Source of the DNA: Escherichia phage vB_EcoM_PHB13 | Reading direction: 5' to 3' (one strand) | DNA length: 64,000 bases | Sequence record: MK573636 | Shown: piece after piece, positions 9,299 to 64,000 of the stretch | Layout of the letters: every line of letters begins with the position of its first letter | Numbering within the stretch: the stretch's first letter is position 1 | Notes under the pieces: model-generated | Database searches by the model: none | Seen by the model: only the letters and a program-made list of their open reading frames with translations | What the model was told of the DNA's origin: nothing | Position numbers and translations under genes: made by a program

Positions 9299-9676
9299 AT
9301 GATGATGATGTTTAAAGATAAATTCGAATGTCACTACACCCGTAACTTTGACTTAGTATCCCGCTACTACATTCATAAAGAAACTGGTACGCAAGTAGTT
9401 CTTGAATCTCACAGCGAAGTAGGATTCGATTCAACAAAAGTAGCAATTAGTGCTCGCTTCTGGGATAACGGCAAATTTGCTTATATCGCTTGGAACGACG
9501 ACGAAAATGTAATTACAGTAGCTTTCGGTGATGACTACTACACTAAAAAGACTTTCGATAGTAAGCCATCAAATGAATACCTGAAAGCGTATGTGCAGCA
9601 CATGTTCCAACGTGTTCTGACCGGAATGGAAATCAATGTCATGAAAGACATTGTAGACGAAGTAAAATATTCTTAA
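9299..9676 (+). CDS. hypothetical early protein
   Basis: ATG 8 nt after the GGAG of the conserved leader; the ORF-track start at 9230 is a TTG inside the -35 element. Confidence 0.5.
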   Translation: MMMMFKDKFECHYTRNFDLVSRYYIHKETGTQVVLESHSEVGFDSTKVAISARFWDNGKFAYIAWNDDENVITVAFGDDYYTKKTFDSKPSNEYLKAYVQHMFQRVLTGMEINVMKDIVDEVKYS

Positions 9677-9682
9677 AAATAG

Positions 9683-9711
9683 TTGACAATATGAAACGGG
9701 GGTAGTAAGAT
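9683..9711 (+). promoter_or_regulatory. sigma70-type early promoter cassette
   Basis: TTGACA-N17-TAAGAT followed by the AAGGAGAATCAAA-ATG leader. Confidence 0.55.
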
Positions 9712-9742
9712 ACCACCACAAACAAACGAAAGGAGAATCAAA

Positions 9743-9901
9743 ATGAAATTTATCGGTAAAACTTTTATGTTCGTAGCTGGTACTCTGTTTACTGCAACTC
9801 TGTTAGCTGGTGGGTTGGATATCTTTACTACATTTGAAACTTTCGGGTATACTGTAGCATCGGGTGCTCTCTTCGGATTGGGTTTAGCGATTAGCAAATA
9901 A
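9743..9901 (+). CDS. small hydrophobic protein (52 aa)
   Basis: ORF below the ORF-track size cutoff, directly behind a promoter cassette with consensus SD; predicted single or double TM peptide. Confidence 0.4.
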   Translation: MKFIGKTFMFVAGTLFTATLLAGGLDIFTTFETFGYTVASGALFGLGLAISK

Positions 9902-11495: not shown

Positions 11496-11524
11496 TTGAC
11501 AGGGGAGGATAACTCCCCTACAAT
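11496..11524 (+). promoter_or_regulatory. sigma70-type early promoter cassette with spacer palindrome
   Basis: TTGACA, then AGGGGAG-GATAA-CTCCCCT inverted repeat filling the spacer, then TACAAT. Confidence 0.55.
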
Positions 11525-11553
11525 ACAACCATCAACGAAACGGGAGAATCAAA

Positions 11554-11781
11554 ATGATTAACTTTAAAGACGCAGCAAAAGAAATTATCGACTTTGAGCG
11601 TGAACTGTTTGAGATGGAACCGCAGATGGGTAAAATGGAACTGGCTAACCAGATCTGGGCTACTAGACTGAATCCGGCTGATCGCTTAGAGATCATGAAC
11701 ATTGTAGGCGCAAGCGACATGAAAGGTGGTGCTATGGCTAAACTCCGCAAATGCACCGCATACATTGCTGATCAACTGTAA
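11554..11781 (+). CDS. hypothetical early protein
   Basis: 75 aa behind a promoter cassette. Confidence 0.45.
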   Translation: MINFKDAAKEIIDFERELFEMEPQMGKMELANQIWATRLNPADRLEIMNIVGASDMKGGAMAKLRKCTAYIADQL

Positions 11782-12976: not shown

Positions 12977-13173
12977 TGACGATTAGTAAAAATGATATTG
13001 GTTTTGTTGCGGGTATCGCTAGCGTCTTTACTGTTGTTATTTTGCTAATGCTTTTACCCGGTGTATTCTCTGACCAGATTGAATTGTATGTAGCTTTTAT
13101 CTGTTGCATTTATACTTGGTTTGCAATGTTTGTGATTAGTCTAATTATGCAATTCGTCGTTAACAAATTTTAG
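12973..13173 (+). CDS. small membrane protein
   Basis: 66 aa hydrophobic. Confidence 0.4.
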   Translation: MMTISKNDIGFVAGIASVFTVVILLMLLPGVFSDQIELYVAFICCIYTWFAMFVISLIMQFVVNKF

Positions 13174-17534: not shown

Positions 17535-17563
17535 TTGACAGCATGAAACGGGGGTAGTAATAT
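17535..17563 (+). promoter_or_regulatory. sigma70-type early promoter cassette with spacer palindrome
   Basis: TTGACA...GGGGG-TAGTAATATA-CCCCC...; the -10 (TAATAT) lies in the loop of the palindrome; leader ATCGAAACAAAGGAG. Confidence 0.55.
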
Positions 17564-17591
17564 ACCCCCATCGAAACAAAGGAGTATTAAA

Positions 17592-17927
17592 ATGAGTGTT
17601 AAAGAAGTATTTGTTTATACTGACTATGAAGGGTGTGCCTATCTCACTGCTGGAAAACTTTACCGTTGTGAGATTATTCATGGTACGTTAGGTCGAATTA
17701 TGTGCGATCCTATTACAAAATTGTGGAAAAATAATCCTAGTGAGCGAGAAACTCTTATTAACCTAGATCCAGACGGTTGTTCACATTTGGACTATAGAAA
17801 ATGGCATATAGTTACACATGATGCTTATGGTATTCATCTTGCTACTAAAGAATTAACTATTGACAAGTTCAAGTTTAAAGAAATCCCGTTTGTATACTGG
17901 CTTCGCAATTTGTTTAAGAAAGGATAA
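17592..17927 (+). CDS. small paralogous protein C
   Basis: 111 aa, third member of the family (KLYRCE...DPDGCSHLDYRKW). Confidence 0.45.
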   Translation: MSVKEVFVYTDYEGCAYLTAGKLYRCEIIHGTLGRIMCDPITKLWKNNPSERETLINLDPDGCSHLDYRKWHIVTHDAYGIHLATKELTIDKFKFKEIPFVYWLRNLFKKG

Positions 17928-27109: not shown

Positions 27110-27138
27110 TTGACAGGGGATCGCGTATCCCCTATACT
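27110..27138 (+). promoter_or_regulatory. sigma70-type early promoter cassette with spacer palindrome
   Basis: TTGACA-GGGGATCGCGTATCCCC-TATACT followed by ...ACGAAACACACTTTCTTAAGGAGAATCAAA-ATG. Confidence 0.55.
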
Positions 27139-27180
27139 ACACACATCAAAACGAAACACACTTTCTTAAGGAGAATCAAA

Positions 27181-27459
27181 ATGAGCAATCTGTCTTTCGC
27201 TAAAGTAGAAATTTCTAAAACTCGCGGTGGCTTTAAAATCAAAACTTCCAATATCACTTCCTGCCGTGGTTGCGACCAGTTTGCTCGTGACCTTGCTGTG
27301 AAGCTGGGTATCAAAACCTTTACCGTTGAGAGCGGATCTAACTGGACTACCCTGATTGTTGCTGCCGCTTGGATCAATGGCGAGTATGTGGAAAAAGCAT
27401 ACTTTGACATTTTCTACGACTACGAAGAAAAATGCTTTTATGCACTGCAAGACATGTAA
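27181..27459 (+). CDS. hypothetical early protein
   Basis: 92 aa behind a promoter cassette. Confidence 0.45.
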   Translation: MSNLSFAKVEISKTRGGFKIKTSNITSCRGCDQFARDLAVKLGIKTFTVESGSNWTTLIVAAAWINGEYVEKAYFDIFYDYEEKCFYALQDM

Positions 27460-27783: not shown

Positions 27784-27812
27784 TTGACATGAAAATGCGG
27801 TTATCCTATAAT
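27784..27812 (+). promoter_or_regulatory. sigma70-type early promoter cassette
   Basis: TTGACA-N17-TATAAT with ATGCGG...CCGCAT inverted repeat around the -10; leader of the GAGGATTATATT-ATG type. Confidence 0.55.
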
Positions 27813-27846
27813 AGCCGCATCAAATGAACGATGTGAGGATTATATT

Positions 27847-28155
27847 ATGTTTATCTCTTCTGCTACTCCAGTTAAAGTTTACGGCGAAACTGTGTATCTT
27901 CCGGCTGGCTATCGCTATGTTATCGTTGACCGTTACGGTGATGTATATGCTTTTAAAGGCCGTCCGGTTGAGATTGATGCTGAATATTGTACATGGGGAT
28001 ATAAAGCCGCTTACATGGATATTCCTGATTTGGGAGTACGCTTAGGAAGATTTGATAATGATGTTAAACCATGCTTGATTAAGTATGCATCCTATGGTAA
28101 AACTGTTAAACCAAATAGCGTCGGCTGGATTGATGACGGCGTTAACGTGAAATAA
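27847..28155 (+). CDS. hypothetical early protein
   Basis: 102 aa. Confidence 0.45.
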   Translation: MFISSATPVKVYGETVYLPAGYRYVIVDRYGDVYAFKGRPVEIDAEYCTWGYKAAYMDIPDLGVRLGRFDNDVKPCLIKYASYGKTVKPNSVGWIDDGVNVK

Positions 28156-31737: not shown

Positions 31738-31766
31738 TTGACAATAAGAAATGGGAGTAGTAAAAT
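31738..31766 (+). promoter_or_regulatory. sigma70-type early promoter cassette with spacer palindrome
   Basis: TTGACA...GGGAGTAGTAAAATACTCCC...; the -10 is inside the palindrome; leader AAGGAGAATCAACA-ATG. Confidence 0.55.
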
Positions 31767-31797
31767 ACTCCCATCTAATCAAGAAGGAGAATCAACA

Positions 31798-32070
31798 ATG
31801 CGTAAGATGTTTAAATCCGGTGTGGCCTATGTTTTTAAATCTGAGCAAGCACGTAAAGACTTCTTAGAGGATGACTACGAAGGTTTGAAAGATACCTACG
31901 AAGTCATCAAGAATGGGTTTACTGTTCTTAAAGTGTCACCTATTGGTTATGTAAGTGAAATCTCGGTTGATGGGAAAACATATACCGCTAAAGACTTTGA
32001 TCCGCGTTGGGAATTTATGCTTCTTCCGTGTGACCGCATTCTGTTTCGTGCTGTTCAATTAGTGAAATGA
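31798..32070 (+). CDS. hypothetical protein, FKVL/ERKYFKRI-family module
   Basis: About 90 aa; the ORF-track start at 31738 is the promoter TTG. Shares the GFxVLKV...G.V...DG..YTA.DF module with the next two genes. Confidence 0.45.
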   Translation: MRKMFKSGVAYVFKSEQARKDFLEDDYEGLKDTYEVIKNGFTVLKVSPIGYVSEISVDGKTYTAKDFDPRWEFMLLPCDRILFRAVQLVK

Positions 32071-32648: not shown

Positions 32649-32677
32649 TTGACATGATGAAACGGGAGTAGTAAGAT
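32649..32677 (+). promoter_or_regulatory. sigma70-type early promoter cassette with spacer palindrome
   Basis: TTGACA...GGGAGTAGTAAGATACTCCC... Confidence 0.55.
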
Positions 32678-32708
32678 ACTCCCATTTAAACAACTAGAGG
32701 ATTATATT

Positions 32709-33887
32709 ATGGCTAAATTCTTTGAAGGTCATTACTATGCATTCCGTGAAGGTGGTAAAGATGAGTTTCTAGACTTTTCTCGCTATTCAATTATTCTGAC
32801 CGATGCTTCGCGCCGTGGTCATATTCGGGTTGCTGAAATCGTCGAAAAGGGCTTTAAAGTATTAGAAAAAGATGACAACGGTCATGTTATTACTATTGAA
32901 GCTGGAGATGTAGTTTATTCCGCTGAGGATATCGTTTATTATTGGGCTACTATGATTATGCACGATGAGCGTAAATACTTTAAACGCATCTCAAAAGAGG
33001 CATACGAAGCGATGAACAAGAAAGAGGATGCAATGCCGACTTACTTTGAAAAAGGTAAATGTTATTCGTTTACACCAGAAGGTTTGCAAGAATTTAAGCG
33101 ATTCTGGGGAGAGCATGATCCAGATCACAAAGAAGCTATGAAACTTGTTGATTTTGTCGAATATGGCTTTTTAGTTGAAGAAGAATTGCACGGATCAGCT
33201 ACCATGATCACCGCGAAAGGTGAAACTGTTAAGGCAGATCGTTTTTGTGATCAATGGGCTTGTGTGTTTGATGGTGGCGAATTTGAATACTTCGCGGAAA
33301 TCACGAAACAACAATTTCATTCTATGCAAGCGGATGGTCAGAGATTTAAAGTAGGTGAACGCTACAAGCCAAATCAGCATAATTTGCCATATTGGTTTAC
33401 CGCTGAAACTGTATCAAGTCATGTTGTTGAAATTGTTCAAAAGCTGGGACAAGGATTTAAGGTGACTAAAGTAGATGATTATGGAAGTGTTGACGCGGTT
33501 GAAATTGATGGTGTAGAATATACACCGAAATCTTTCGGGCTTTGCTGGTATCACTTGATCAGCAATGATGAACGTTATAACTTTGTTGAACTGCCATCTG
33601 AACCGGAAGAAGCACTAGAAGATCATGATCATCTGTCTGAACTGGTTAAACTGTTTGGTGATCTGCCGGATGGTGTAGGCGTGGCGGTAATGGGTGAAGG
33701 TACTGTTATTCGCAACCTGAAAGACCTTAAAAAGTTCTTGATTGACATGCTGCCTAAACTTGATGATAATCTCGATAAAGATATTCAGAATCGCAAAGAA
33801 ATTGTTAAAGATACTGAAAAAGAGATCGAAGAGATTCGAGCAATTCGCCAGAAGGTGAAAGCAGTAAAGAAAAAAGTTAGTGCTTGA
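32709..33887 (+). CDS. hypothetical protein, FKVL/ERKYFKRI family (multi-module)
   Basis: 392 aa with at least three related internal modules (GFKVLEKDDNGHV..ERKYFKRISKEAYEAM; GFLVEEELHG...; GFKVTKVDDYGSV...). Confidence 0.45.
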   Translation: MAKFFEGHYYAFREGGKDEFLDFSRYSIILTDASRRGHIRVAEIVEKGFKVLEKDDNGHVITIEAGDVVYSAEDIVYYWATMIMHDERKYFKRISKEAYEAMNKKEDAMPTYFEKGKCYSFTPEGLQEFKRFWGEHDPDHKEAMKLVDFVEYGFLVEEELHGSATMITAKGETVKADRFCDQWACVFDGGEFEYFAEITKQQFHSMQADGQRFKVGERYKPNQHNLPYWFTAETVSSHVVEIVQKLGQGFKVTKVDDYGSVDAVEIDGVEYTPKSFGLCWYHLISNDERYNFVELPSEPEEALEDHDHLSELVKLFGDLPDGVGVAVMGEGTVIRNLKDLKKFLIDMLPKLDDNLDKDIQNRKEIVKDTEKEIEEIRAIRQKVKAVKKKVSA

Positions 33888-33911
33888 CATGCGAAGGGAG
33901 TATGCTATAAT
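33884..33911 (+). promoter_or_regulatory. sigma70-type early promoter cassette with spacer palindrome
   Basis: TGCTTGACA-...GGGAGTATGCTATAATACTCCC...; consensus TATAAT within the palindrome. Confidence 0.55.
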
Positions 33912-33941
33912 ACTCCCACTTAACAACGAGAGGATTATATT

Positions 33942-34436
33942 ATGTGGGTACAAGATGTTTGGTATACTGTAACTAAAGAAAACCTTGACGCATTCAGCGA
34001 CCAATCTTGCGCTAATAGCTCAATTGCTGGTATACTTACTGATGTGTTTGGTGGTGTAGATAAAATTCGTTTTAAAGTTGTTGTTAGTTCGCTGGGTCAG
34101 GTGAAAGATCTTTACACCGAAGATAAAGACCTTGATCTTGAACTTCGTCTTCGTATTGATAATGCAAGTCTAGGTTATTGGTTTGAAGATAACGAATATG
34201 AATACTTCACACCAGCAATTAAAGTTTTTGCGACTAAACTGGAAGCTGTACTGAATCTACGACCAATTAATGTTGACGGCTACATTATCAAAAATATTCA
34301 GGATTGGGAGTTGTATCTAGATCAGGTTATCCGAAATAGTAAGCAGGAAGCCGCTAATAAGAAGCGACAAGAGATTAAACAGCTTAAAGCTGAACTGGAA
34401 GCGGCGGAAAAAGAATTAGCAGAACTGGTAAAATAA
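33942..34436 (+). CDS. hypothetical protein
   Basis: 164 aa; C-terminal coiled coil. Confidence 0.45.
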   Translation: MWVQDVWYTVTKENLDAFSDQSCANSSIAGILTDVFGGVDKIRFKVVVSSLGQVKDLYTEDKDLDLELRLRIDNASLGYWFEDNEYEYFTPAIKVFATKLEAVLNLRPINVDGYIIKNIQDWELYLDQVIRNSKQEAANKKRQEIKQLKAELEAAEKELAELVK

Positions 34437-37535: not shown

Positions 37536-37564
37536 TTGACGGGGATCGCGAGATCCCCTATACT
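37536..37564 (+). promoter_or_regulatory. sigma70-type early promoter cassette with spacer palindrome
   Basis: TGCTTGACG-GGGATCGCGAGATCCCC-TATACT followed by ...ACGAGATAC...AGGAGAATCAAAT-ATG. Confidence 0.55.
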
Positions 37565-37606
37565 ATATTCATCAAGACGAGATACAACTTTACAGGAGAA
37601 TCAAAT

Positions 37607-37759
37607 ATGTGGACTTTACTGATTTGGGAAACTGAAAACGCACAAGTAGAAATCCGTGAATACGAATACCTAAGCCCAGCTTATCTATTAGCATCTCGCG
37701 GTGGTTACTATAAAGCGCAGATTGTAAACGAGTTCGGGGTAATTGAATATGAGTTCTGA
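37607..37759 (+). CDS. small hypothetical protein (50 aa)
   Basis: ATG at consensus distance from the cassette SD; the ORF-track start at 37532 lies in the promoter. Confidence 0.4.
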   Translation: MWTLLIWETENAQVEIREYEYLSPAYLLASRGGYYKAQIVNEFGVIEYEF

Positions 37760-43945: not shown

Positions 43946-44971
43946 ATGAAAATTTTGCTTTTAGGTGATCTGCATACTGGCATCGGTGGCGATGATCCGT
44001 GGGTGCATGAGTATATTTTAGACACGATCAAGAAAGCTGTTGATTATTCTAAAGAAAATGGTATTAAGATATGGATTCAAACAGGGGATTGGTTTGATTG
44101 TCGCAAGGCTATCACACATGAAACCATGAAATTTAACCGTACTAAGGTCATCCCATTACTGGAAGAGGCAGGAATCACCTGTTATATCACGGTCGGGAAT
44201 CATGATATGTTTAAACGCAATAAGATCCAGCCTAACGCGCCGCGTGAAGTGTTAAGCCAGTATGATTGCATTAAGGTTATTGATAAGCCAGAAACAGTTA
44301 CCTTTGATGGGGTATCATTCGACCTGTTCCCGTGGTTTTGTGATGACAATAAATCCGAGGTTTTAGAGTTTATTCAAAATTCATTCAGCGAATATTGTGT
44401 AGGCCATTGGGAATTGTCCGGCTACTATTTCTATAAAGGGTTAAAATCCGAAGGTTATAGCGCGGACTTCCTCAAGAAATACCGTGAAGTGTTTTCCGGT
44501 CACTTTCATACTATCAGTGATGGCGGTAACGTAACGTATATTGGCACACCATACACACTAACGGCTGGCGACGAAAATGATCCGCGTGGTTTTTGGGTAT
44601 TCGATACAGATACACACAAAAAGGAGTTTATCCAGAATGACAAAACTTATCATGTGCGTATCACTTACCCGTCAGATGATAAAATCGATGTAGAACGCTT
44701 TAAAGGGCTTAGTGTGCGCCTAATTGCAACGGTCGCTGATAATGGGTTAACTAAGTTAGAAAGCGCGTTAGAAGCCGTTGTGCATAAGCTAAAAGTTGTC
44801 CATAAGCTGGAGAGTAGCGCATCACAGGAAACAGGTGTTATTGAAGTTAAAAGCACTATTCAGATGGTCTATGAATATCTGGAAGAACAAAACCTAGAAC
44901 CGGAAGAACTTGCGGCGGTCAAGCGTATTTCTGATGAACTTTTAGCCGAAGTAAATAACGCAAAAAGTTAG
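43946..44971 (+). CDS. 47: recombination endonuclease subunit gp47 (Mre11-like)
   Basis: 341 aa; calcineurin-like phosphoesterase motifs (LGDLHTG, GDWFD, GNHD, GHFH); T4 gp47 is 339 aa. Confidence 0.85.
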   Translation: MKILLLGDLHTGIGGDDPWVHEYILDTIKKAVDYSKENGIKIWIQTGDWFDCRKAITHETMKFNRTKVIPLLEEAGITCYITVGNHDMFKRNKIQPNAPREVLSQYDCIKVIDKPETVTFDGVSFDLFPWFCDDNKSEVLEFIQNSFSEYCVGHWELSGYYFYKGLKSEGYSADFLKKYREVFSGHFHTISDGGNVTYIGTPYTLTAGDENDPRGFWVFDTDTHKKEFIQNDKTYHVRITYPSDDKIDVERFKGLSVRLIATVADNGLTKLESALEAVVHKLKVVHKLESSASQETGVIEVKSTIQMVYEYLEEQNLEPEELAAVKRISDELLAEVNNAKS

Positions 44972-45000
44972 TTGACGCGGGGAGAAATCCCCGTTATACT
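44972..45000 (+). promoter_or_regulatory. sigma70-type early promoter cassette with spacer palindrome
   Basis: TTGACG-CGGGGAGAAATCCCCG-TATACT. Confidence 0.55.
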
Positions 45001-45025
45001 CTCTAAAAATTGATTGGAGGTTGTT

Positions 45026-45271
45026 ATGGTTACTAATGCACTGAAAGAAATCAACGAAGGTTTGTCGAAATTCACTAAGATCCATGTATTTGAGGTTGTG
45101 CGAGATGGTCAGTATATGCTATCATTTCGGTCTAACTATGGTTTATGGACTCATGACGAAATCCCATTTGATCGTGAAAATATCACCAAAGAGTGGCTAA
45201 CAAACATCGTATCCCGTAAGGTTGCTGATATTACCCAGAATGTTATTGCTCGTGAATCGTGGAGTATGTAA
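45026..45271 (+). CDS. hypothetical protein
   Basis: About 81 aa after GGAGG SD. Confidence 0.4.
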   Translation: MVTNALKEINEGLSKFTKIHVFEVVRDGQYMLSFRSNYGLWTHDEIPFDRENITKEWLTNIVSRKVADITQNVIARESWSM

Positions 45272-54790: not shown

Positions 54791-55861
54791 ATGTCTGTAC
54801 TGGAAAAACTGAAAAAGAACTCTACCCTGAAAACTACTGCGGTACTGTCTAAATCCAGCTTCTTTAACGAAAAAACAAATACTCGCACTAAGATCCCGAT
54901 GCTGAATATTGCGTTTTCCGGTGATCTTAAAAAAGGCTTTCAATCTGGTCTGATTTTCTTTGCTGGTCCGTCTAAGCACTTTAAATCAAACATGGGATTA
55001 ACCTGTGTTAGTGCATACATGAAACAGAATCCTGATGCGGCTTGTTTGTTCTTTGATTCTGAGTTCGGTATTACTCCCGCTTATCTGGAATCTATGGGCG
55101 TAGATCCTGATCGCGTAGTGCATGTTCCAATCAAGAACATCGAAGAACTTAAATTTGAAATCATGAACCAGCTTGAGCAAATTACCCGTGAAGATAAAGT
55201 GATCATCTTTATTGACTCAATTGGTAACTTAGCAAGTAAAAAAGAAGTTGAAGACGCGATTAATGAGAAATCCGCACAGGATATGACGCGAGCGAAAGCA
55301 CTTAAAGGCTTGTTCCGTATGGTTACGCCGTATCTGACTATGAATGATATCCCGTGCATCGCTATTAACCACACTTACGAAACGCAAGAAATGTTTAGTA
55401 AGACCGTTATGTCCGGCGGTACGGGCGCGATGTACAGCGCGAATGAAGTTTTTATTATCGGTCGTCGCCAGCAGAAAGAAGGTACAGAGTTGACTGGTTA
55501 TGAGTTTATATTGAAGGCCGATAAGTCACGAACTGTTAAAGAAGGGTCGAAGTTCCCGATTGATGTAACGTTTAGCGGTGGTATTAACCCATATTCCGGT
55601 TTACTGGATCTCGCAATCGAGCTTGGGTGGGTCGTCAGCCCGTCGAAAGGTTGGTATTCTCGTTCCATTCTGAATACTGAAACAGGAGAAATGGAAACAG
55701 AAGAACGCAAGTTCCGTGCTAAAGAAACTAATAGTGTTGATTTTTGGAGACCGCTTCTGACTAATGATAAGTTTAACGAAGCGATTAACGAACACTATCA
55801 GCTGGGTCAAGTTATAAGCGATGAGGCAGTTGACAAAGAAGTCGAAGATATGTTAGCATAA
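54791..55861 (+). CDS. uvsX: RecA-like recombinase UvsX
   Basis: 356 aa; Walker A AGPSKHFKS, conserved IAINHTYETQEMFSKTVMSGGTG region typical of T4 UvsX. Confidence 0.85.
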   Translation: MSVLEKLKKNSTLKTTAVLSKSSFFNEKTNTRTKIPMLNIAFSGDLKKGFQSGLIFFAGPSKHFKSNMGLTCVSAYMKQNPDAACLFFDSEFGITPAYLESMGVDPDRVVHVPIKNIEELKFEIMNQLEQITREDKVIIFIDSIGNLASKKEVEDAINEKSAQDMTRAKALKGLFRMVTPYLTMNDIPCIAINHTYETQEMFSKTVMSGGTGAMYSANEVFIIGRRQQKEGTELTGYEFILKADKSRTVKEGSKFPIDVTFSGGINPYSGLLDLAIELGWVVSPSKGWYSRSILNTETGEMETEERKFRAKETNSVDFWRPLLTNDKFNEAINEHYQLGQVISDEAVDKEVEDMLA

Positions 55862-55872
55862 CAATGGTAGTA

Positions 55873-55895
55873 AAGGGGCTACGTGCCCCTTTTTC
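55873..55895 (+). terminator. intrinsic terminator after uvsX
   Basis: GGGGCTACGTGCCCC hairpin plus TTTTT. Confidence 0.6.
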
Positions 55896-57693: not shown

Positions 57694-58329
57694 ATGATCG
57701 CTAATGCTTTACCGCCAAAATGGATCGTAAGTCGCTTTTATACTCTCAAGGAAGGTAACGCACCTGATGGTCGTCCGATCCGAGATCTGTTTCTGGAGAT
57801 GACTACCGCCGAAGCACAATTTTATAATGATCTGACAGACGATAAGCCGTTTCTTGTAAATTCTGTGGATCTTGATGGTAATGTTACGTCAATTATCGCA
57901 CATGGTGGGGAAGTGAAAAATATTACTTCTCTGCGTGAACACGGTTGGGAAATTGCTTGTGTATTTCCTGCGGATGTACGCGGATTCTTTGATGAGGTAT
58001 CTGATATTAAAGTAAATGCACTAGAACCATATGACGAGATCCCACCACTGAAAGAAGAAAAAGAGTTGACACCGGAAGATGTAGATAGTACACTACACCC
58101 AGACCTATTTAAGAAGATTAGCGGTTTATGGACTGTTACCCTGCATCCAACCGCATTAGGTCTAGAATTGGGTATGCCAACTTATTCTGATATTGATAAT
58201 TGGACTAAGCATATTGATAAAGATGTTGAAAAACAGCGAAATAATGCTAAAATGCAACTTAAAGAGAAACGAAAAGATCTTGAACGACAACTGAAAGAAA
58301 CCAAACATTTGCTTTCTACGTTCGCTTGA
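57694..58329 (+). CDS. hypothetical protein
   Basis: 211 aa. Confidence 0.4.
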   Translation: MIANALPPKWIVSRFYTLKEGNAPDGRPIRDLFLEMTTAEAQFYNDLTDDKPFLVNSVDLDGNVTSIIAHGGEVKNITSLREHGWEIACVFPADVRGFFDEVSDIKVNALEPYDEIPPLKEEKELTPEDVDSTLHPDLFKKISGLWTVTLHPTALGLELGMPTYSDIDNWTKHIDKDVEKQRNNAKMQLKEKRKDLERQLKETKHLLSTFA

Positions 58330-58359
58330 TCTATAATGAAACTCTAAGGAGACTATATT

Positions 58360-58734
58360 ATGAAAAATATGATTACGCCGGAAGATGTAGCATTTAAAAC
58401 CGCAAATAACGGAGACATTCTTATTTTTATCGACGGTAAACATGCTGGTATGGTTGAACCGGAAGGACGCTGGGGAGTCGCCGAACTTTATGATGTGGCT
58501 GGTGTAGATCCGAAAACTGCAATTGTTTTTCTGGCGGATAAAGATCAAATGCGTCGAAAAATTGCTGCGCTCTATAATGAAGCATTGTATTTCTACGAAC
58601 CGTTTCATCGTATTAAAACGATCTCCCGCGTGACTCGAAAAGATGTTAATGCTTGTGTTATCAAGATTGTAGAGAATCAGGATAAACTGACGAAAGACCA
58701 GATTGTTGACTTACTGAAAGAGATTATTCTATGA
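58360..58734 (+). CDS. hypothetical protein
   Basis: 124 aa from AGGAGACTATATT-ATG. Confidence 0.4.
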   Translation: MKNMITPEDVAFKTANNGDILIFIDGKHAGMVEPEGRWGVAELYDVAGVDPKTAIVFLADKDQMRRKIAALYNEALYFYEPFHRIKTISRVTRKDVNACVIKIVENQDKLTKDQIVDLLKEIIL

Positions 58735-59054
58735 TTGGCTTTAAACAGTTTGTTGAAGAAAATAAACTCAAAGAAGATATGACCGCTGGCGATGCTGGCG
58801 GCAATCCTGAGAAGATCGCAGCAGGTGAAACGAGCGGATCTATTACCAATCGTGGACCTAGTGTAGCGGGTAAAGAAAAACGCAAAAAGGAGAAAGACGG
58901 TGCTTAGTATCATCATGTTTATCGTTGGCTTGCTGTCCGCTATTATCGGTGTTGTTGTTTTCGGATTATCTGGACACAAAACAAAAACAGAAAAGTTATC
59001 CGAGATCACAATGTATGTTGGTGTAGTTCTCATTCTGTTGTCGGTGGCGCTTAA

Positions 59055-59258
59055 ATGATTACGATGAAATGTCTTAAAAGCACATATGCACTTTTTGAAG
59101 CCGGAAAAGAATATGAATTTACAGAACTTGACCCGGTAGGACGTTTTCGTGTATTCTCTTACACATCGCCAGATGGTAGTGTCTACAAATTTGGCTTAGA
59201 TGAAAACGGAGAGAATGAAAATGAAAGTGTAGGAACTTTCATGAAATTTGAGCTATAA
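59055..59258 (+). CDS. hypothetical protein
   Basis: 67 aa. Confidence 0.35.
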   Translation: MITMKCLKSTYALFEAGKEYEFTELDPVGRFRVFSYTSPDGSVYKFGLDENGENENESVGTFMKFEL

Positions 59259-59267
59259 GAGGTTATT

Positions 59268-60296
59268 ATGATTTACTACGCAGATTATGAAATAGCGGAA
59301 AAAGCCATATACGGCGAACGAAATTTTAAACGGTTGCATACTAGCTCATTTACGCTGGTCTGTAGTTGTCCGATCTGCGGTGACTCAAAGAAAAATCATA
59401 CTCAAGCGCGATTCCGTATCTATACCTATAAGGATAGTTTGCGTTGCGGCTGTTTCAACTGTAACTACAATCAGCCGTTAGGTGAATTTCTCAAACAGTA
59501 TAAGCCGGACCTATTCAGGGAATGGCTTATGGAACGACGGAAGGAACAAGGCGACCACAAGAACACCACGTTCAAGCCACTGAAAAAGGTAGAAAAGCCG
59601 GAGATTAAGAAAGTGCAAACATTGCCTTTCTGCGAGAGATTAGATACTCTTCCGGCTAATCATCCTATAATAAAGTATGTCAGTGATCGTTGCATCCCTC
59701 ACGATAAATGGGATCTTCTGTATTTCACGAGAGAATGGCAAAAGGTAGCAAATCACATTAAGGCTGATACTTTCAAGAATCCACAACCTGAACCGCGTTT
59801 AGTGATTCCTATCTTTAACCGCGAGAACAAGATAGAATCCATTCAGGGGCGAGCATTGAGAAAGGATTACGGAAAGACCAAATATATGACGATTAAAACT
59901 CACGAGTTAGCGAGTAAGGTCTATGGTCTTGAACGCGCCGATCCGAGTAAACCAGTGTATTTCTTAGAAGGTCCGATCGATTCATTGTTTATTGATAACG
60001 GGTGTGCAATTACTGGCGGTACGTTGGGATTAGATGAAATCCCTTTCCCAGACCAGCGAGTGTTTGTACTTGATGCGGAACCACGGTCTGCCGATACAAT
60101 GCACCGACTGGAAAAGTTTATCAACGCAGGGGAAAAGATTGTATTATGGGATCGTTGCCCGTGGCATTCTAAAGACGTTAACGCCATGATTCAGGATGAG
60201 GGTGCTACACGCGACCAGATCATGGAATATATCAAAGAGAACACCGTACAAGGTCTGATGGCTAAAATGCGGTTTATGAAATATTGTAAATTTTAA
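59268..60296 (+). CDS. 61: DNA primase gp61
   Basis: 342 aa, same length as T4 gp61; N-terminal zinc ribbon (CSCPICGD...CGCFNC) followed by TOPRIM region. Confidence 0.85.
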   Translation: MIYYADYEIAEKAIYGERNFKRLHTSSFTLVCSCPICGDSKKNHTQARFRIYTYKDSLRCGCFNCNYNQPLGEFLKQYKPDLFREWLMERRKEQGDHKNTTFKPLKKVEKPEIKKVQTLPFCERLDTLPANHPIIKYVSDRCIPHDKWDLLYFTREWQKVANHIKADTFKNPQPEPRLVIPIFNRENKIESIQGRALRKDYGKTKYMTIKTHELASKVYGLERADPSKPVYFLEGPIDSLFIDNGCAITGGTLGLDEIPFPDQRVFVLDAEPRSADTMHRLEKFINAGEKIVLWDRCPWHSKDVNAMIQDEGATRDQIMEYIKENTVQGLMAKMRFMKYCKF

Positions 60297-60310
60297 TTAA
60301 TGAGGTGAAT

Positions 60311-60829
60311 ATGTCAGAATTTAATTCTTGTGCTGGTCTGGTTAACGAAAAAGATATTAACGCGGCTATCGCCGCATATCATCACGCTATTGCAGAAGGT
60401 AAAGATCCGTTTCAGGTGATGCTCGAAATGCAAACTGGTTTGCAGGTTGCATTATCCGAAAAATTTGATTGGGTCCCAAATCCAACTAAGCTAGAGACTT
60501 GCGGTGAAATGCTGGATTGGATGCAACGGATGGATGACGCTATCGCAGACGAAACACGAGAGCTTTACACATCGCTGGGTGGAATGTCCAATGGTAAAGA
60601 TGCAAGTGCAATCTGGAAAATGTGGAAAAAGAACCACGGAGAAGCGCGAGCGCGTAAATTCTCTGAACTGTCACCGGAAGATCAGCTTGAAGTGAAATTT
60701 GAATTTGTGGACGCGATCCACTTCATTCTGTCAAAGATGATCCCGCTGGGTATTGACGCTCAAGAACTCTTTATTCTGTACTATCTGAAAAATGCTGAAA
60801 ACTTCGCCCGTCAAGAACGCGGCTACTAA
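60311..60829 (+). CDS. gp56-like nucleotide pyrophosphatase candidate (assignment by position and size)
   Basis: About 172 aa acidic protein after gene 61, where T4 carries gene 56 (dCTPase, 171 aa). No active-site motif verified. Confidence 0.4.
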   Translation: MSEFNSCAGLVNEKDINAAIAAYHHAIAEGKDPFQVMLEMQTGLQVALSEKFDWVPNPTKLETCGEMLDWMQRMDDAIADETRELYTSLGGMSNGKDASAIWKMWKKNHGEARARKFSELSPEDQLEVKFEFVDAIHFILSKMIPLGIDAQELFILYYLKNAENFARQERGY

Positions 60830-60865
60830 AAATTAGTTGACACTACTCTATCATGGTTTTATTAT

Positions 60866-60896
60866 GCCTCCCGTCGAAAGATTGGAGGCTTTTTTA
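60866..60896 (+). terminator. terminator-like hairpin sequestering the SD of the downstream gene
   Basis: GCCTCCCGTCGAAAGATTGGAGGC hairpin plus TTTTTT, ending 3 nt before the ATG at 60899; the only GGAGG upstream of that ATG is the 3-prime arm of the stem. Confidence 0.5.
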
Positions 60897-60898
60897 TT

Positions 60899-61402
60899 AT
60901 GCAATTTACACCAGAAGAACTTAACATCATTGATGAGGTGATGAACTCTAAAGAAAATATCGATATGTCGATCCTTAATGGATTGATTGAAAAGACTGAG
61001 CGGTTAGTGCATCATGAAGCCTTGTATCGCGGTGTGAGCAAAAGAGAAGGTCGTAAGCTGGATACCTTAATTGTAGGCGATTCTTTCGTTGTAGAGCGTC
61101 CTATGAGCTTTACGCCACTGCAATCAACAGCAGAGGACTTTGCAACCGATGTTTATGCAACAGGAAAGATTATTGCAATAAAACCTACCAAGCCTTGCAT
61201 GAATTATTACGAACATGCTATTGACCGAGTGGTGTCTAAAGAGTATGACAATCCGACTACTCGACTGTCTTTGTATGCTATGTTGGCAGATGAGCGCGAG
61301 TGCATATACAAGACAGGGACGACCATGATCCTTGACGAGATCGAGGAAGTTTACGCGTGTAATGGCGATCTGATAGAGATTTACAAATTTTCTTTAATTT
61401 AA
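60899..61402 (+). CDS. putative mono-ADP-ribosyltransferase (ModA/ModB-like)
   Basis: 167 aa with an ordered R (ALYRGVSKR) - S/T (MSFTPLQST) - ExE (DERE) triad like R-S-E ADP-ribosyltransferases; position corresponds to T4 modA/modB between 56 and srd. Confidence 0.4.
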   Translation: MQFTPEELNIIDEVMNSKENIDMSILNGLIEKTERLVHHEALYRGVSKREGRKLDTLIVGDSFVVERPMSFTPLQSTAEDFATDVYATGKIIAIKPTKPCMNYYEHAIDRVVSKEYDNPTTRLSLYAMLADERECIYKTGTTMILDEIEEVYACNGDLIEIYKFSLI

Positions 61403-61405
61403 GTG

Positions 61406-61434
61406 TTGACAGCACAAACCAGATAGACAATAAT
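61406..61434 (+). promoter_or_regulatory. sigma70-type early promoter cassette
   Basis: TTGACA-N17-(C)AATAAT followed by ACACACATACCAACTAAGGAGAATCAATT-ATG, a leader identical to the one at 24617-24645. Confidence 0.55.
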
Positions 61435-61463
61435 ACACACATACCAACTAAGGAGAATCAATT

Positions 61464-62219
61464 ATGAAACTGTTTGCTTTTAAATCTAACGAAGAATTGG
61501 CGCTGGTTGTTTTCCGTCTGAACTCTATCATGGCTGGTGCTTCACGTCGCAACAAAGACTTCTCTATGAGCTTAGTCACTGTGCGTAACATTTACCGACA
61601 GACTCATTGCGCCTATTCCGGTGAGGCTTTCGGTGAAGGTGATGATGGACTCTCCTTAGAGCGCATTGATTGCAATCTGGGATATGTTGATGGCAATGTA
61701 ATTCCGGTTAAACTGAAATACAATTCTTTCCGTGGCAATCACACTATCGAATCTCTTAAAGAGATCCAGGAACTAGGAACTAACGGTAAACTTTCTGATG
61801 ATGAAATTGCCCTACGTGCGAAGTACATCGAGTGGATCGAACTTAACGAGAATCGCATCAAAAATCAGGAAATGGCAATCGAAGAAAAGAAATTAGCAAT
61901 CGAGCGCCATAAAAAGCACAACGAACCGGAGAAAGCAGAGGCAGCCGAGCGAGCGATTAAAAATACTCTCTTCCGTATGGAAGAACGTTATCAGAAAATT
62001 GCAGATCTCAAGCAAGCCCTTAGCGAAATCAACAAGAAAGAAGAAAAACTTAAGGCTATTGCAAACAATACCGAAATCGTGCTAAAATATACCAGCGTTT
62101 TGATTGAATCTCTTTCTAAGTATGAGAACTTAACGCCAGCACAAAAAGAACGCGTGAAATACGGGCTTCCGATTGATGCGTCGTGGATTGAATTGATGAA
62201 AGCGAAGGTAGGTTTATAA
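61464..62219 (+). CDS. Srd-like protein (by synteny)
   Basis: 251 aa; position between the mod-like gene and dda.1/dda matches T4 srd (about 250 aa). Confidence 0.35.
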   Translation: MKLFAFKSNEELALVVFRLNSIMAGASRRNKDFSMSLVTVRNIYRQTHCAYSGEAFGEGDDGLSLERIDCNLGYVDGNVIPVKLKYNSFRGNHTIESLKEIQELGTNGKLSDDEIALRAKYIEWIELNENRIKNQEMAIEEKKLAIERHKKHNEPEKAEAAERAIKNTLFRMEERYQKIADLKQALSEINKKEEKLKAIANNTEIVLKYTSVLIESLSKYENLTPAQKERVKYGLPIDASWIELMKAKVGL

Positions 62220-62533
62220 TGCATGTATTTGCTGTATGTTATCGTGATAAAGACGGATTCTTTCAATACTCAGTGGACGCGAAGGGTCGCGTCCTAACTT
62301 GCGAAACACATGATGCTGCGTTAGCGTCAATGTGTGATCAGATAGATTATTGTGAGAGTCTATTGGCGGGTGAACCGAAATACAAGGTTGTACCTAAACG
62401 AAAATTTGGCATAATCCGGTCTTCTGAAATTGTTCGGGATGGTATCGAATATAAAATTCCTGAATATGAAAAAGAACGGGTACGGCGAGAACTCAATACT
62501 ATCTGTGTTCGCAAGGTGAGGATTTTAGGATAA
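62219..62533 (+). CDS. hypothetical protein (dda.1 position)
   Basis: 104 aa; ATGA overlaps at both ends. Confidence 0.4.
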   Translation: MHVFAVCYRDKDGFFQYSVDAKGRVLTCETHDAALASMCDQIDYCESLLAGEPKYKVVPKRKFGIIRSSEIVRDGIEYKIPEYEKERVRRELNTICVRKVRILG

Positions 62534-63924
62534 TGAGCAGAGTATTAACTTTCGATATGTTAACAGACGGGCAAAAACATGCTTTTGATGTTCTAATGAA
62601 ACGCATTGAACAAAAGAAGCATACAACTGTCCGTGGTGCGGCGGGTACTGGTAAAACCGCAATGATGAAATTCATTGTTCAGGAAATGGTCCGTCGTGGT
62701 GTAACTGGTGTGGTTTTGGCAACGCCTACCCACCAGGCTAAAAAAGTTTTGAGTAAAGCGGTAGGTCGTCAAGCATTTACTTTACATGCTTTATTGCGTC
62801 TTAATCCGACCAACTATGAAGATACTCAAGTATTTGAACAAAAAGATACTCCTAAGCTAGATGATGTTCAGATCATCATTGTTGATGAAGCGAGTATGGT
62901 CGATAAGAAGTTATTTGATATTCTCATGAAGAGTATCAACGGTCGAATTGTTGTTATTGCAGTTGGCGATCCGCACCAGTTACGACCAGTTGATCCAAGC
63001 GGTGCAACGTCAATTTCTCCTTTCTTCACGGATGAAAATTTTCAAAACGTGGAGTTGACAGAAATTAAACGATCTAATGCACCGATCATTGATGTGGCGA
63101 CCGCTGTCCGTAACGGTAAATGGGTATTCGAAAAGCAGTGCGGTAACGAGGGTGTATTCCATAGCTCAACTCTGCCGGAGTTTATGAAGCATTATTTCGA
63201 AACCGTTAAAACGCCGGAAGACCTTCTAGAAAACCGTATTCTGGCTTACACTAACAAGAGCGTCGAAAAACTCAATGAAATTGTGCGTAAGCGCGTTTAT
63301 AACACCGATGAACCCGTGATTGTAGATGAAATTCTGGTTACTCAGGAACCGTTGATCGAATATCTGCGAGATGAACGCGGGAAGAAAATTCCCAATGTTA
63401 TTTTTAACAATGGTGAGATGATCCGGGTTAAAGAGGTTATACCGCGTGAATTTACATTACGTTGCACGGGGGTAGATCCGCAACCAGTTTTAGGCTATAC
63501 TCTGAAAGTGGAAAGCGTCGATGATGACGAAGACAAAGAAATCCTAAATCAGAAAGTCGGTTTAGATGCAGTCGGAATCACTACAGATAAACCAGATTTA
63601 GTAGAAATCAACATTCTGACAGAACAACGTCAGAAGAACATTTTCTCTATCTATCTGAATACGGTCGCCGGACAATATCGCGAAATGAAGAAAGAGAATC
63701 CAAAATTTAAACCAGATTGGGATTCCTTCTGGACGATGAAACGTATGTTCTTGAATGTAAAAGCATTACCAGCTTGCACCATTCATAAGTCACAAGGGAT
63801 CAGCGTAGACCGCGTGTTCCTGTATACTCCTTGTATGTGTACAGACAATGTTGACTTTGAATTGGCAATGCAGTTATTATATGTGGGTGTTACCCGTGCG
63901 CGGTATCGAGTAGACTATATTTGA
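62533..63924 (+). CDS. dda: SF1 DNA helicase Dda
   Basis: 463 aa; Walker A GAAGTGKT, motif II IIVDEASM, conserved ATPTHQAKK and ELTEIKRSNAPIIDVATAVRNGKW regions closely matching T4 Dda. Confidence 0.85.
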   Translation: MSRVLTFDMLTDGQKHAFDVLMKRIEQKKHTTVRGAAGTGKTAMMKFIVQEMVRRGVTGVVLATPTHQAKKVLSKAVGRQAFTLHALLRLNPTNYEDTQVFEQKDTPKLDDVQIIIVDEASMVDKKLFDILMKSINGRIVVIAVGDPHQLRPVDPSGATSISPFFTDENFQNVELTEIKRSNAPIIDVATAVRNGKWVFEKQCGNEGVFHSSTLPEFMKHYFETVKTPEDLLENRILAYTNKSVEKLNEIVRKRVYNTDEPVIVDEILVTQEPLIEYLRDERGKKIPNVIFNNGEMIRVKEVIPREFTLRCTGVDPQPVLGYTLKVESVDDDEDKEILNQKVGLDAVGITTDKPDLVEINILTEQRQKNIFSIYLNTVAGQYREMKKENPKFKPDWDSFWTMKRMFLNVKALPACTIHKSQGISVDRVFLYTPCMCTDNVDFELAMQLLYVGVTRARYRVDYI

Positions 63925-63934
63925 GGAAATTATT

Positions 63935-64000
63935 ATGATTATGCGAAGTATCCCAGAATTTAATGATGTGACGGTAAGCCGTCACAATGGAACTGTTACC
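63935..64000 (+). CDS. start of a further early gene (truncated by the window end)
   Basis: ATG after AGGAAATTATT SD; open to the window edge (MIMRSIPEFNDVTVSRHNGTVT...). Confidence 0.3.
   Translation, partial: MIMRSIPEFNDVTVSRHNGTVT

Follow-up and report, generated by a model that had tools for sequence, protein, structure and literature searches.

Gene order and features of the mod locus

The stretch analysed here, hereafter the window, comprises 64,000 nt of Escherichia phage vB_EcoM_PHB13 (record MK573636). Its genes 61, 56, mod, srd, dda.1 and dda follow one another in this order (Table 1), and region 60300–62300 shared 99% identity with Escherichia phages JEP8, RB49 and GEC-3S and with about 50 other genomes of Krischvirus, the RB49-like T4-type myoviruses. 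The gene order in T4 is identical, with modB-modA in the equivalent place, which bears out the synteny of the mod slot with T4 modA/modB that had been claimed in the original prediction, made from the letters of this DNA alone. Upstream of mod, the AT-rich sequence AAAAATTAG precedes the -35 box of an early promoter, giving the arrangement AAAAATTAG-TTGACA-17-TATTAT; the promoter is followed by a hairpin whose 3′ arm contains the Shine–Dalgarno (SD) sequence, and then by a T-tract and the start codon. Transcripts of gene 56 would run into this hairpin.

Table 1 Genes, regulatory features and catalytic codons of the mod locus, with positions in the window
Feature	Position	Strand	Evidence or remark
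Primase gp61	59268-60296		
Gene 56, dCTP/dUTP pyrophosphatase (dCTPase)	60305..60829	+	PHROG 173, E 5e-37; RB49 and GEC-3S annotation
-35 hexamer TTGACA	60837..60842	+	Promoter scan; minus_35_signal in GEC-3S; within RB49 Pe:9496
-10 hexamer TATTAT	60860..60865	+	17-nt spacer; ends one base before hairpin
Hairpin 5′ arm GCCTCC (anti-SD)	60866..60871	+	Promoter positions -6 to -1
Predicted modB transcription start	60872..60873	+	Placed 7-8 nt past the -10 box; Pe:9496 model ends at the equivalent of 60873
Hairpin apical part, GUC / GAAA tetraloop / GAU	60873..60882	+	
Hairpin 3′ arm GGAGGC	60884..60889	+	Includes SD GGAGG, 60884-60888
T6 tract	60890..60895	+	Followed by ATT and by the ATG at 60899
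modB-like mono-ADP-ribosyltransferase, 167 aa	60899..61402	+	ORF from ATG 60899; PHROG, alignments, predicted fold
Catalytic codon R44 (in LYRG)	61028-61030	+	
Catalytic codon S70 (in SFT, S70-F-T72)	61106-61108	+	
ExE motif E132-R-E134	61292-61300	+	E132 61292-94, E134 61298-300
srd early promoter TTGACA-17-AATAAT	61406..61434	+	Internal control; srd leader without SD-sequestering hairpin
srd	61464-62219		
dda.1	62219-62533		
dda	62533-63924		

The mod product belongs to the ModA/ModB family of ADP-ribosyltransferases

The 167-aa ORF is the gene annotated as modB in the RB49-like phages (Krischvirus), where RB49, GEC-3S and dozens of relatives carry it under the name modB or ADP-ribosylase. 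Its product matched PHROG 832 (‘RNA polymerase ADP-ribosylase’) with an E-value of 1e-20, its homologues bear precomputed tags for the Pfam family PF26816 (Mod_ADP_RT), and tblastn retrieved the Mod genes of Dhakavirus and related phages with E-values down to 2e-10, as well as T4 modB with an E-value of 6e-4. Searches with the protein itself returned nothing but an insignificant DUF5507 match in the local Pfam-A search, no match in NCBIfam and no match among PDB sequences; family membership therefore rests on the PHROGs, the PF26816 tags, the alignments and the predicted fold.

An alignment of 16 Mod sequences, including T4 ModA/ModB, JS98 ModA/ModB, a Marfavirus Mod and metagenomic relatives, revealed that R44, G45, S70, E132 and E134 were invariant. 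The pair E132-x-E134 was invariant in two alignments and nearly invariant in a third, which includes one shorter member, and the ExE motif of the ORF is the ERE at residues 132–134, not the EIEE further on. R44 aligns with R73 of T4 ModB, whose replacement (R73A) abolished both ADP-ribosylation and RNAylation (PMC10468400). The AlphaFold2 model of the protein had a mean pLDDT of 90.7 and a pTM of 0.84. When it was compared with the PDB using Foldseek, 115 matches were obtained at E<=1e-3, and the best matches listed were ADP-ribosyltransferases, mostly toxins of the R-S-E type (Certhrax, CDTa, C3, VIP2 and iota Ia), with E-values of about 3e-7 and a probability of 1.00.

These alignments and the modelled fold identify the ORF as the representative, in Krischvirus, of the T4 ModA/ModB arginine-specific R-S-ExE mono-ADP-ribosyltransferases, with a predicted enzymatic activity. 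Both the putative assignment to the ADP-ribosyltransferases, for which a fold search and structure prediction had been suggested, and the ordered R / S-T / ExE triad on which it was based have thus held up, since AlphaFold2 and Foldseek point to an R-S-E ADP-ribosyltransferase and R44, S70 and E132-x-E134 align with T4 ModA/ModB. This identity is correct but not new, as the gene was already annotated. By its family, the 167-aa Mod would be an immediate-early enzyme of host takeover. The candidate targets are RNA polymerase alpha for ModA, and S1, EF-Tu and trigger factor, together with RNAylation, for ModB. BLASTP scores of Krischvirus Mod against the ModA and ModB clades were 30–65 bits, placing it at roughly equal distance from both; its target is thus not assignable from this relationship, and the database label ‘modB’ is conventional.

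A stable hairpin contains the only Shine–Dalgarno sequence of mod

The SD sequence GGAGG lies 10 nt before the ATG and is the sole SD-like motif available to modB; the interval from the stem to the start codon at 60899 has no second one. The hairpin at 60866–60889 had a predicted folding energy of -15.0 kcal/mol (z = -4.7), and none of 200 dinucleotide shuffles folded as well. It is the sole inverted repeat of at least 6 nt within 60780–60960 (181 nt). Its stem, located 37 nt past the gene 56 stop codon, consists of nine pairs, six of them G-C/C-G, and is followed by U6, so that the sequence has the make-up of an intrinsic terminator. The TransTerm table of Nolan et al. 2006 includes an RB49 terminator at 9430–9453 (‘modB<--56’, confidence 100), and this RB49 interval maps exactly onto window 60866–60889. 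A simple terminator scan of our own missed the modB hairpin because its loop was counted as 12 nt, and an Rfam search of 58000–64000 gave no match.

We also considered the loop motif CCGTCGAAAG as a possible shared element and rejected it: a second copy at 55640 is located inside a long ORF (54791–55861), and the four matches found at up to one mismatch, compared with 2.5 expected, correspond to chance. Elsewhere in the window, a weaker look-alike hairpin was observed at 45026 (-10.2 kcal/mol, z -2.5).

The early promoter of mod is predicted to start transcription past the 5′ arm

The promoter scan showed that the modB sigma-70 early promoter matches the consensus at 11 of 12 positions. The same promoter is annotated in phage GEC-3S, and Nolan et al. 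2006 predicted an early promoter in RB49, Pe:9496, which maps to window 60823–60873. The two RB49 predictions, terminator 9430–9453 and Pe:9496, overlap by 8 nt; no comment on this overlap was found in the text of Nolan 2006 or in its supplementary tables that were searched. Relative to the predicted +1, the last nucleotide of the 5′ arm of the hairpin is at -1. In RB49 coordinates the predicted start corresponds to about 9447/9446. Since the predicted start lies just past the 5′ arm, modB's own mRNA should be without that arm and its SD should be mostly open.

Folding calculations agreed with this geometry. The leader of modB's own transcript had a folding energy of only -2.3 kcal/mol (z +1.6), and 193 of 200 shuffles folded at least as well. 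In the partition function, the probability of the SD being unpaired was 0.000 in read-through RNA and 0.43 if transcription starts at 60872 or later. With the SD open to this extent and a long 10-nt spacing between the SD and the AUG, the model indicates that expression from modB's own mRNA may be modest.

The original prediction had described a terminator-like hairpin with the SD as its 3′ arm and a T-tract ending 3 nt before the ATG, and these features are located exactly where it had placed them. Its proposal that the SD is sequestered in read-through transcripts is likewise supported by the computed unpaired probability. The further idea of a ‘locked’ ribosome binding site under tight translational control stands for read-through RNA but not for modB's own early-promoter mRNA, whose leader is largely open. 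The original prediction overlooked the early promoter of modB; with that promoter in place, the hairpin is better read as a gate set by the origin of the transcript, and at the same time as the terminator of gene 56, than as a constitutive lock.

Leaders of mod genes across T4-like phages

For a wider comparison we took the leader of the first mod gene of each source, which gave 25 distinct leaders from nine named genera plus unclassified records. The sample covered T4; JS98 and MX01 (Dhakavirus); SP18 (Gaprivervirus); pzk-kv8 and MY02 (Marfavirus); myPSH1140 (Karamvirus); S16 (Gelderlandvirus); PEi26 (Kanagawavirus); X20 and Gravdalen (Winklervirus); Mizar; IMG/VR contigs; and Krischvirus. 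The mod leader of the unclassified phage Biddle was identical to that of pzk-kv8. For T4 (MT984581.1), the modB start is predicted at 13136/13135 on the minus strand.

All 25 leaders contained an early promoter with a TTTACA or TTGACA box, a spacer of 16–17 nt and a TATGAT-like -10 box. In every one of them the -10 box and/or the discriminator constituted the 5′ arm of a helix of 10–16 bp, the last base of this arm was positioned at -2 to +3 of the predicted +1, and the SD was in the 3′ arm (25/25 in each case); in most leaders outside Krischvirus the 3′ arm also included the AUG. Folding energies of the 25 leaders ranged from -15 to -24 kcal/mol for the full sequence and from 0 to -3 kcal/mol for own-promoter transcripts. 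The sequences of the helices differ between genera, as illustrated by the arms AUGAUAGCUUCUG / CGGAGGCUAUCAU in T4, AUGAUGACCUUCA / UGGAGGUCAUCAU in PEi26, AUAAUGGUCUUUCU / AGAGAGGCCAUUAU in SP18 and GUUAGUAUCUCUU / AGGAGAUACUAAC in Marfavirus. The Krischvirus version alone has an added U-tract and an AUG located outside the stem.

Analysis of an alignment of 17 non-Krischvirus sequences revealed that 6 of 14 pairs were changed on both sides, although the sequences are mutually related and such counts overstate the number of independent events. Standard pairs occupied 84% of the cells in this alignment, compared with 33–50% when the 3′ partner was slid by 1–3 columns, and none of 500 column shuffles reached the observed covariation score. 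The start context ATTATG/ATCATG is common and is in part complementary to the -10 consensus, so that some of the pairing outside Krischvirus may come cheaply.

Comparison of the Krischvirus-type hairpins was confined to four distinct leaders, including those of the metagenomic relatives L003, L007 and L004, because searching IMG/VR and metagenomes for Mod of the Krischvirus type gave mostly identical copies and one 75% relative. The Mod proteins of L003 and L007 share 74–75% identity with that of the window, and that of L004 shares 63%. In all three relatives the -35 and -10 boxes (the latter TATTAT or TATGAT), the length of the spacer and the position of the stem are preserved. L003 and L007 retain the stem, and in L004 the stem is GCCCCC/GGGGGC in place of GCCUCC/GGAGGC, a change from U-A to C-G that keeps the pairing and alters the SD itself; this is the one compensatory event among the four distinct Krischvirus-type leaders. 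The L004 tetraloop is GAGA (GNRA-type) compared with GAAA in the window.

Two comparisons served as controls. The srd and modA leaders, which are located at the same loci and have early promoters, contained no SD-sequestering helix. In a survey of promoter-proximal starts, modB alone of 29 starts in the window combined heavy pairing between the start region and the pre-start sequence with a large loss of folding energy in its own transcript, and it was the strongest of nine in 50 kb of T4, although the pairing count used in this survey is crude, as weak AU helices scored 8–13 in several unrelated leaders and one scored above modB. The difference in energy between the full sequence and the own transcript separated modB more clearly than the pairing count did. 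In the T4 gene mrh.2, the SD was found to pair with the -35 region.

Proposed gating mechanism

We consider it likely that the 5′ region of modB is a promoter–terminator cassette of the PeSL (promoter-early stem-loop) type acting as a gate set by the origin of the transcript, in which the start site, the termination and the differential translation are all predicted. RNA polymerase arriving from genes 61/56 would transcribe both arms, and the GC-rich hairpin with U6 would terminate most of these transcripts. The remaining read-through RNA would have its sole SD within the -15 kcal/mol stem and would be poorly translated. Polymerase starting at about 60872/3, past the 5′ arm, would form no hairpin and would encounter no termination, leaving the SD accessible. 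The hairpin thus probably allows translation only of messages begun at modB's own early promoter, and the Mod enzyme would be made solely while sigma-70 early promoters fire.

Confinement of Mod synthesis to the firing of early promoters fits the toxicity of the T4 relatives: reviews describe T4 ModA as highly toxic and over-expression of ModB as lethal (PMC2988021, PMC3014915). The rationale of tight control for a potentially toxic enzyme, as given in the original prediction, is reasonable in light of these reviews. As Mod enzymes modify RNA polymerase and early promoters are shut off within minutes, there is also a weak suggestion that gating makes Mod synthesis self-limiting.

For the T4-like phages examined as a group, we tentatively put forward an extension that we hold to be plausible though somewhat short of probable, namely that the first mod gene has a gene-specific module in which the -10/discriminator doubles as the anti-SD strand, tying Mod synthesis strictly to that promoter and producing a self-limiting pulse. 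In Krischvirus this logic would have been re-created around a GC stem of unrelated sequence, which would double as a terminator.

Alternative explanations

One alternative is that the hairpin acts solely as an intrinsic terminator for gene 56 and adjoins the next promoter and ribosome binding site for the sake of compactness; it would then overlap the SD by coincidence, without any effect on translation. The GC-rich stem with T6 located 37 nt after the gene 56 stop, and the TransTerm confidence of 100, are what such a terminator would look like; PeSL stem-loops have been described as terminators or attenuators, and efficient termination would leave few read-through RNAs to regulate. However, the modB hairpins of other T4-like phages are without a T-tract, yet in them the SD, usually with the AUG, pairs with the pre-start sequence, and these hairpins are preserved by compensatory changes. 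Even within the Krischvirus type, L004 retains the stem through a double change that also alters the SD. The window provides a further contrast in its many PeSL-like cassettes: in most of them the stem-loop spans or precedes the -10 box, and the SD remains free. On this evidence we judge a purely terminating role to be unlikely.

The reading of the original prediction, taken to mean that the ribosome binding site is locked in all modB mRNAs, so that translation either stays very low throughout or depends on a trans-acting factor or an unfolding event, is consistent with an SD that constitutes the 3′ arm of a stable stem, with the toxicity of Mod enzymes and with the long spacing between the SD and the AUG. 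It is nevertheless very improbable in view of the 11/12 sigma-70 promoter, which ends one base before the stem, has been predicted or annotated independently by others and is conserved in 4/4 Krischvirus-type leaders. Transcripts from this promoter would be without the 5′ arm unless initiation occurred about 6 nt upstream of the normal position, and T4 ModA and ModB have been detected as early proteins (PMC9697503), which also argues against a lock on every message.

Least credible of all is the view that the stem-loop matters mainly as DNA, namely as a PeSL linker for the recombination and shuffling of gene modules, with its RNA effects as by-products, because, even though indels and mini-circles form through PeSLs in RB49 and phi1 (PMC2839356) and many promoter cassettes of the window have a common AAAA-T-GTTGACA context, the modB cassette is located between the conserved, syntenic genes 56 and mod and not among variable ORFans, its stem sequence was not found in the other cassettes of the window, and the SD-pairing logic at modB is conserved across genera that differ in the sequence of the promoter region.

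Novelty and implications

The modB gene, its promoter, its terminator and the class of cassette are already known or annotated, the promoter and the terminator each having been predicted for RB49 in 2006, and the finding specific to the window is therefore largely a rediscovery of annotated and published features. The location of the SD within the stem, together with the conservation of this arrangement at modB across the T4-like phages examined, appears to be a new example of a regulatory principle already known. We found no description of the modB leader hairpin or module in the literature searched, which for T4 was its more recent part, and no start-site data for T4 modB were found in the same search. 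ModB has recently attracted notice for RNAylation, the attachment of RNA chains to ribosomal proteins, and both Mod enzymes are toxic if produced outside an infection. A gate that reads the promoter of origin and is conserved in the lineages examined, if true, would explain how toxic Mod enzymes are confined to a brief immediate-early pulse, and mutations in the 5′ arm would then offer a simple handle on Mod dosage in engineered phages. For annotation, the lesson is that a hairpin plus T-tract placed on a ribosome binding site needs to be interpreted jointly with any overlapping promoter.

Comparison with known systems

The protein resembles T4 ModB/ModA in that it is homologous to them, has the invariant R-S-ExE residues and the ADP-ribosyltransferase fold, and is encoded in the same slot between gene 56 and srd behind an early promoter of its own. 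It differs in size, with 167 aa compared with 200–207 aa for T4 ModA/ModB, and is without about 30 N-terminal residues and an insertion of 8–12 residues; furthermore, Krischvirus has a single mod gene, whereas T4 has the modB-modA pair. The clostridial and Bacillus R-S-E ADP-ribosyltransferase toxins were the best structural matches (query-normalised TM 0.5–0.62) and have the same order of catalytic motifs, but identity to them is only 10–17%, and the phage protein, besides being smaller, is devoid of domains for delivery or binding.

At the level of the leader, the closest known elements are the cassettes of RB49 and phi1 that were named PeSLs in 2010 (Arbiol et al. 2010, PMC2839356; Comeau et al. 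2014, PMC4122927). These are intergenic elements in which a strong sigma-70 promoter is combined with a stem-loop that terminates upstream transcription, and they have been divided into five positional subclasses; for representative PeSLs, termination at the stem-loop was shown experimentally and the promoters were very strong (PMC2839356). The modB cassette likewise consists of an intergenic AT-rich stretch, a consensus sigma-70 promoter, a stable stem-loop, an SD and an ATG, and it fits the subclass whose stem-loop comes after the -10 box and just ahead of the start site, its stem starting at -6. In modB, however, the 3′ arm is the SD itself, whereas in the text of the PeSL paper the SD is an element of its own on the 3′ side, and occlusion of the ribosome binding site is not discussed there (PMC2839356). 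The modB stem is also followed by a canonical U-tract, unlike the PeSL description, and, where PeSLs are defined by about 100 bp of shared sequence and a hyperplastic location, the modB cassette has neither and shares the promoter context alone.

The closest parallel for the gate itself is provided by T4 genes e, soc, 49 and I-TevI, in which RNAs initiated upstream fold the SD and/or the AUG into a helix (McPheeters et al. 1986, reviewed in PMC3014915), and a promoter in or next to the 5′ strand gives rise to transcripts that are without that strand and are translated (PMC3014915). By prediction, modB combines the same two features, with its SD paired in upstream-initiated RNA and its own transcripts, by their geometry, without the 5′ strand. 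The timing differs, since in e, soc, 49 and I-TevI the internal promoter is of the late (gp55) type and expression is delayed, whereas that of modB is a sigma-70 early promoter predicted to confine expression to the immediate-early window. Unlike the classic T4 cases, the Krischvirus modB gate is also predicted to terminate transcription.

Promoter content and stem-loop cassettes of the window

Analysis of promoter motifs revealed 20 exact TTGACA-N16-18-TAnnAT sites in the window, compared with approximately 1 expected, and 19 of these were located on the + strand, whereas the T4 late-promoter consensus TATAAATA occurred 3 times in 64 kb against approximately 6 expected by chance. The low number of late-promoter matches, together with the abundance of early-type sites and their shared strand, indicates that the window is, as judged from its motifs, an almost purely early-transcribed region with a single orientation. 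Six promoter cassettes in the window form a family with a G-run/C-run stem-loop bracketing the -10 box (for example, GGGGGUAGUAAUAUACCCCC); downstream of every stem-loop cassette come an unpaired, free SD and then an ATG, and several of the six have near-identical sequence in common. These six are typical PeSLs, the promoter-early stem-loop cassettes of RB49 and phi1. A second group of intervals is listed with them in the table.

Features elsewhere in the window
Feature	Position	Strand	Remark
G-run/C-run cassette	9683-9743	+	
G-run/C-run cassette	17535-17592	+	
G-run/C-run cassette	27784-27847	+	
G-run/C-run cassette	31738-31798	+	
G-run/C-run cassette	32649-32709	+	
G-run/C-run cassette	33884-33942	+	
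Second-group interval	11496-11554	+	
Second-group interval	27110-27181	+	
Second-group interval	37560-37607	+	
Second-group interval	44970-45026	+	
Leader with second, weaker helix	44990-45031	+	folding; small ORF starting 45026
Promoter-like site	55830-55859		upstream of terminator, within coding end of ORF 54791-55861
Clean intrinsic terminator (AAAGGGGCUACGUGCCCCUUUUU)	55872-55894	+	between long ORF 54791-55861 and ORF starting 55917
Srd homologue	61464-62219	+	

Candidate promoter-gated ribosome binding sites, and an intrinsic terminator

In the leader of the small ORF, which sits directly after a long ORF (43946-44971), the SD (UUGGAGGUUGU) is paired with the -10/discriminator (UAUACUCUCUAA) in a helix of -10.2 kcal/mol (z -2.5), and this may be another promoter-gated ribosome binding site. 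A further possible case of the gating logic of the modB-like gene is the mrh.2 leader of T4 (L020, MT984581.1; start 15218, minus strand), in which the -35 region of the gene's own early promoter (UACUUUCC) pairs with the SD (GGAGAGUA); folding gave -13.8 kcal/mol for the full leader versus -3.0 kcal/mol for its own transcript. At the intrinsic terminator, transcripts from the promoter-like site would contain the whole terminator.

Srd and the mod locus in other phages

Residues 20-100 of the Srd homologue also matched the PHROG families 'decoy of host sigma70' and HNH endonuclease (E 1e-12), and these matches suggest that the N-terminal part of Srd is folded like an HNH domain. In Marfavirus and the unclassified Klebsiella phage Biddle (L012, L037, L038), mod and srd are separated by a small dmd-like gene, which is annotated as Dmd in two of the loci (L037, L038) and as hypothetical in L012. 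The same three loci contain a single mod gene, as do Krischvirus, Karamvirus, Gelderlandvirus, Kanagawavirus and Winklervirus; among the loci examined, the modB and modA pair was found only in T4, Dhakavirus phages, SP18 and Mizar.
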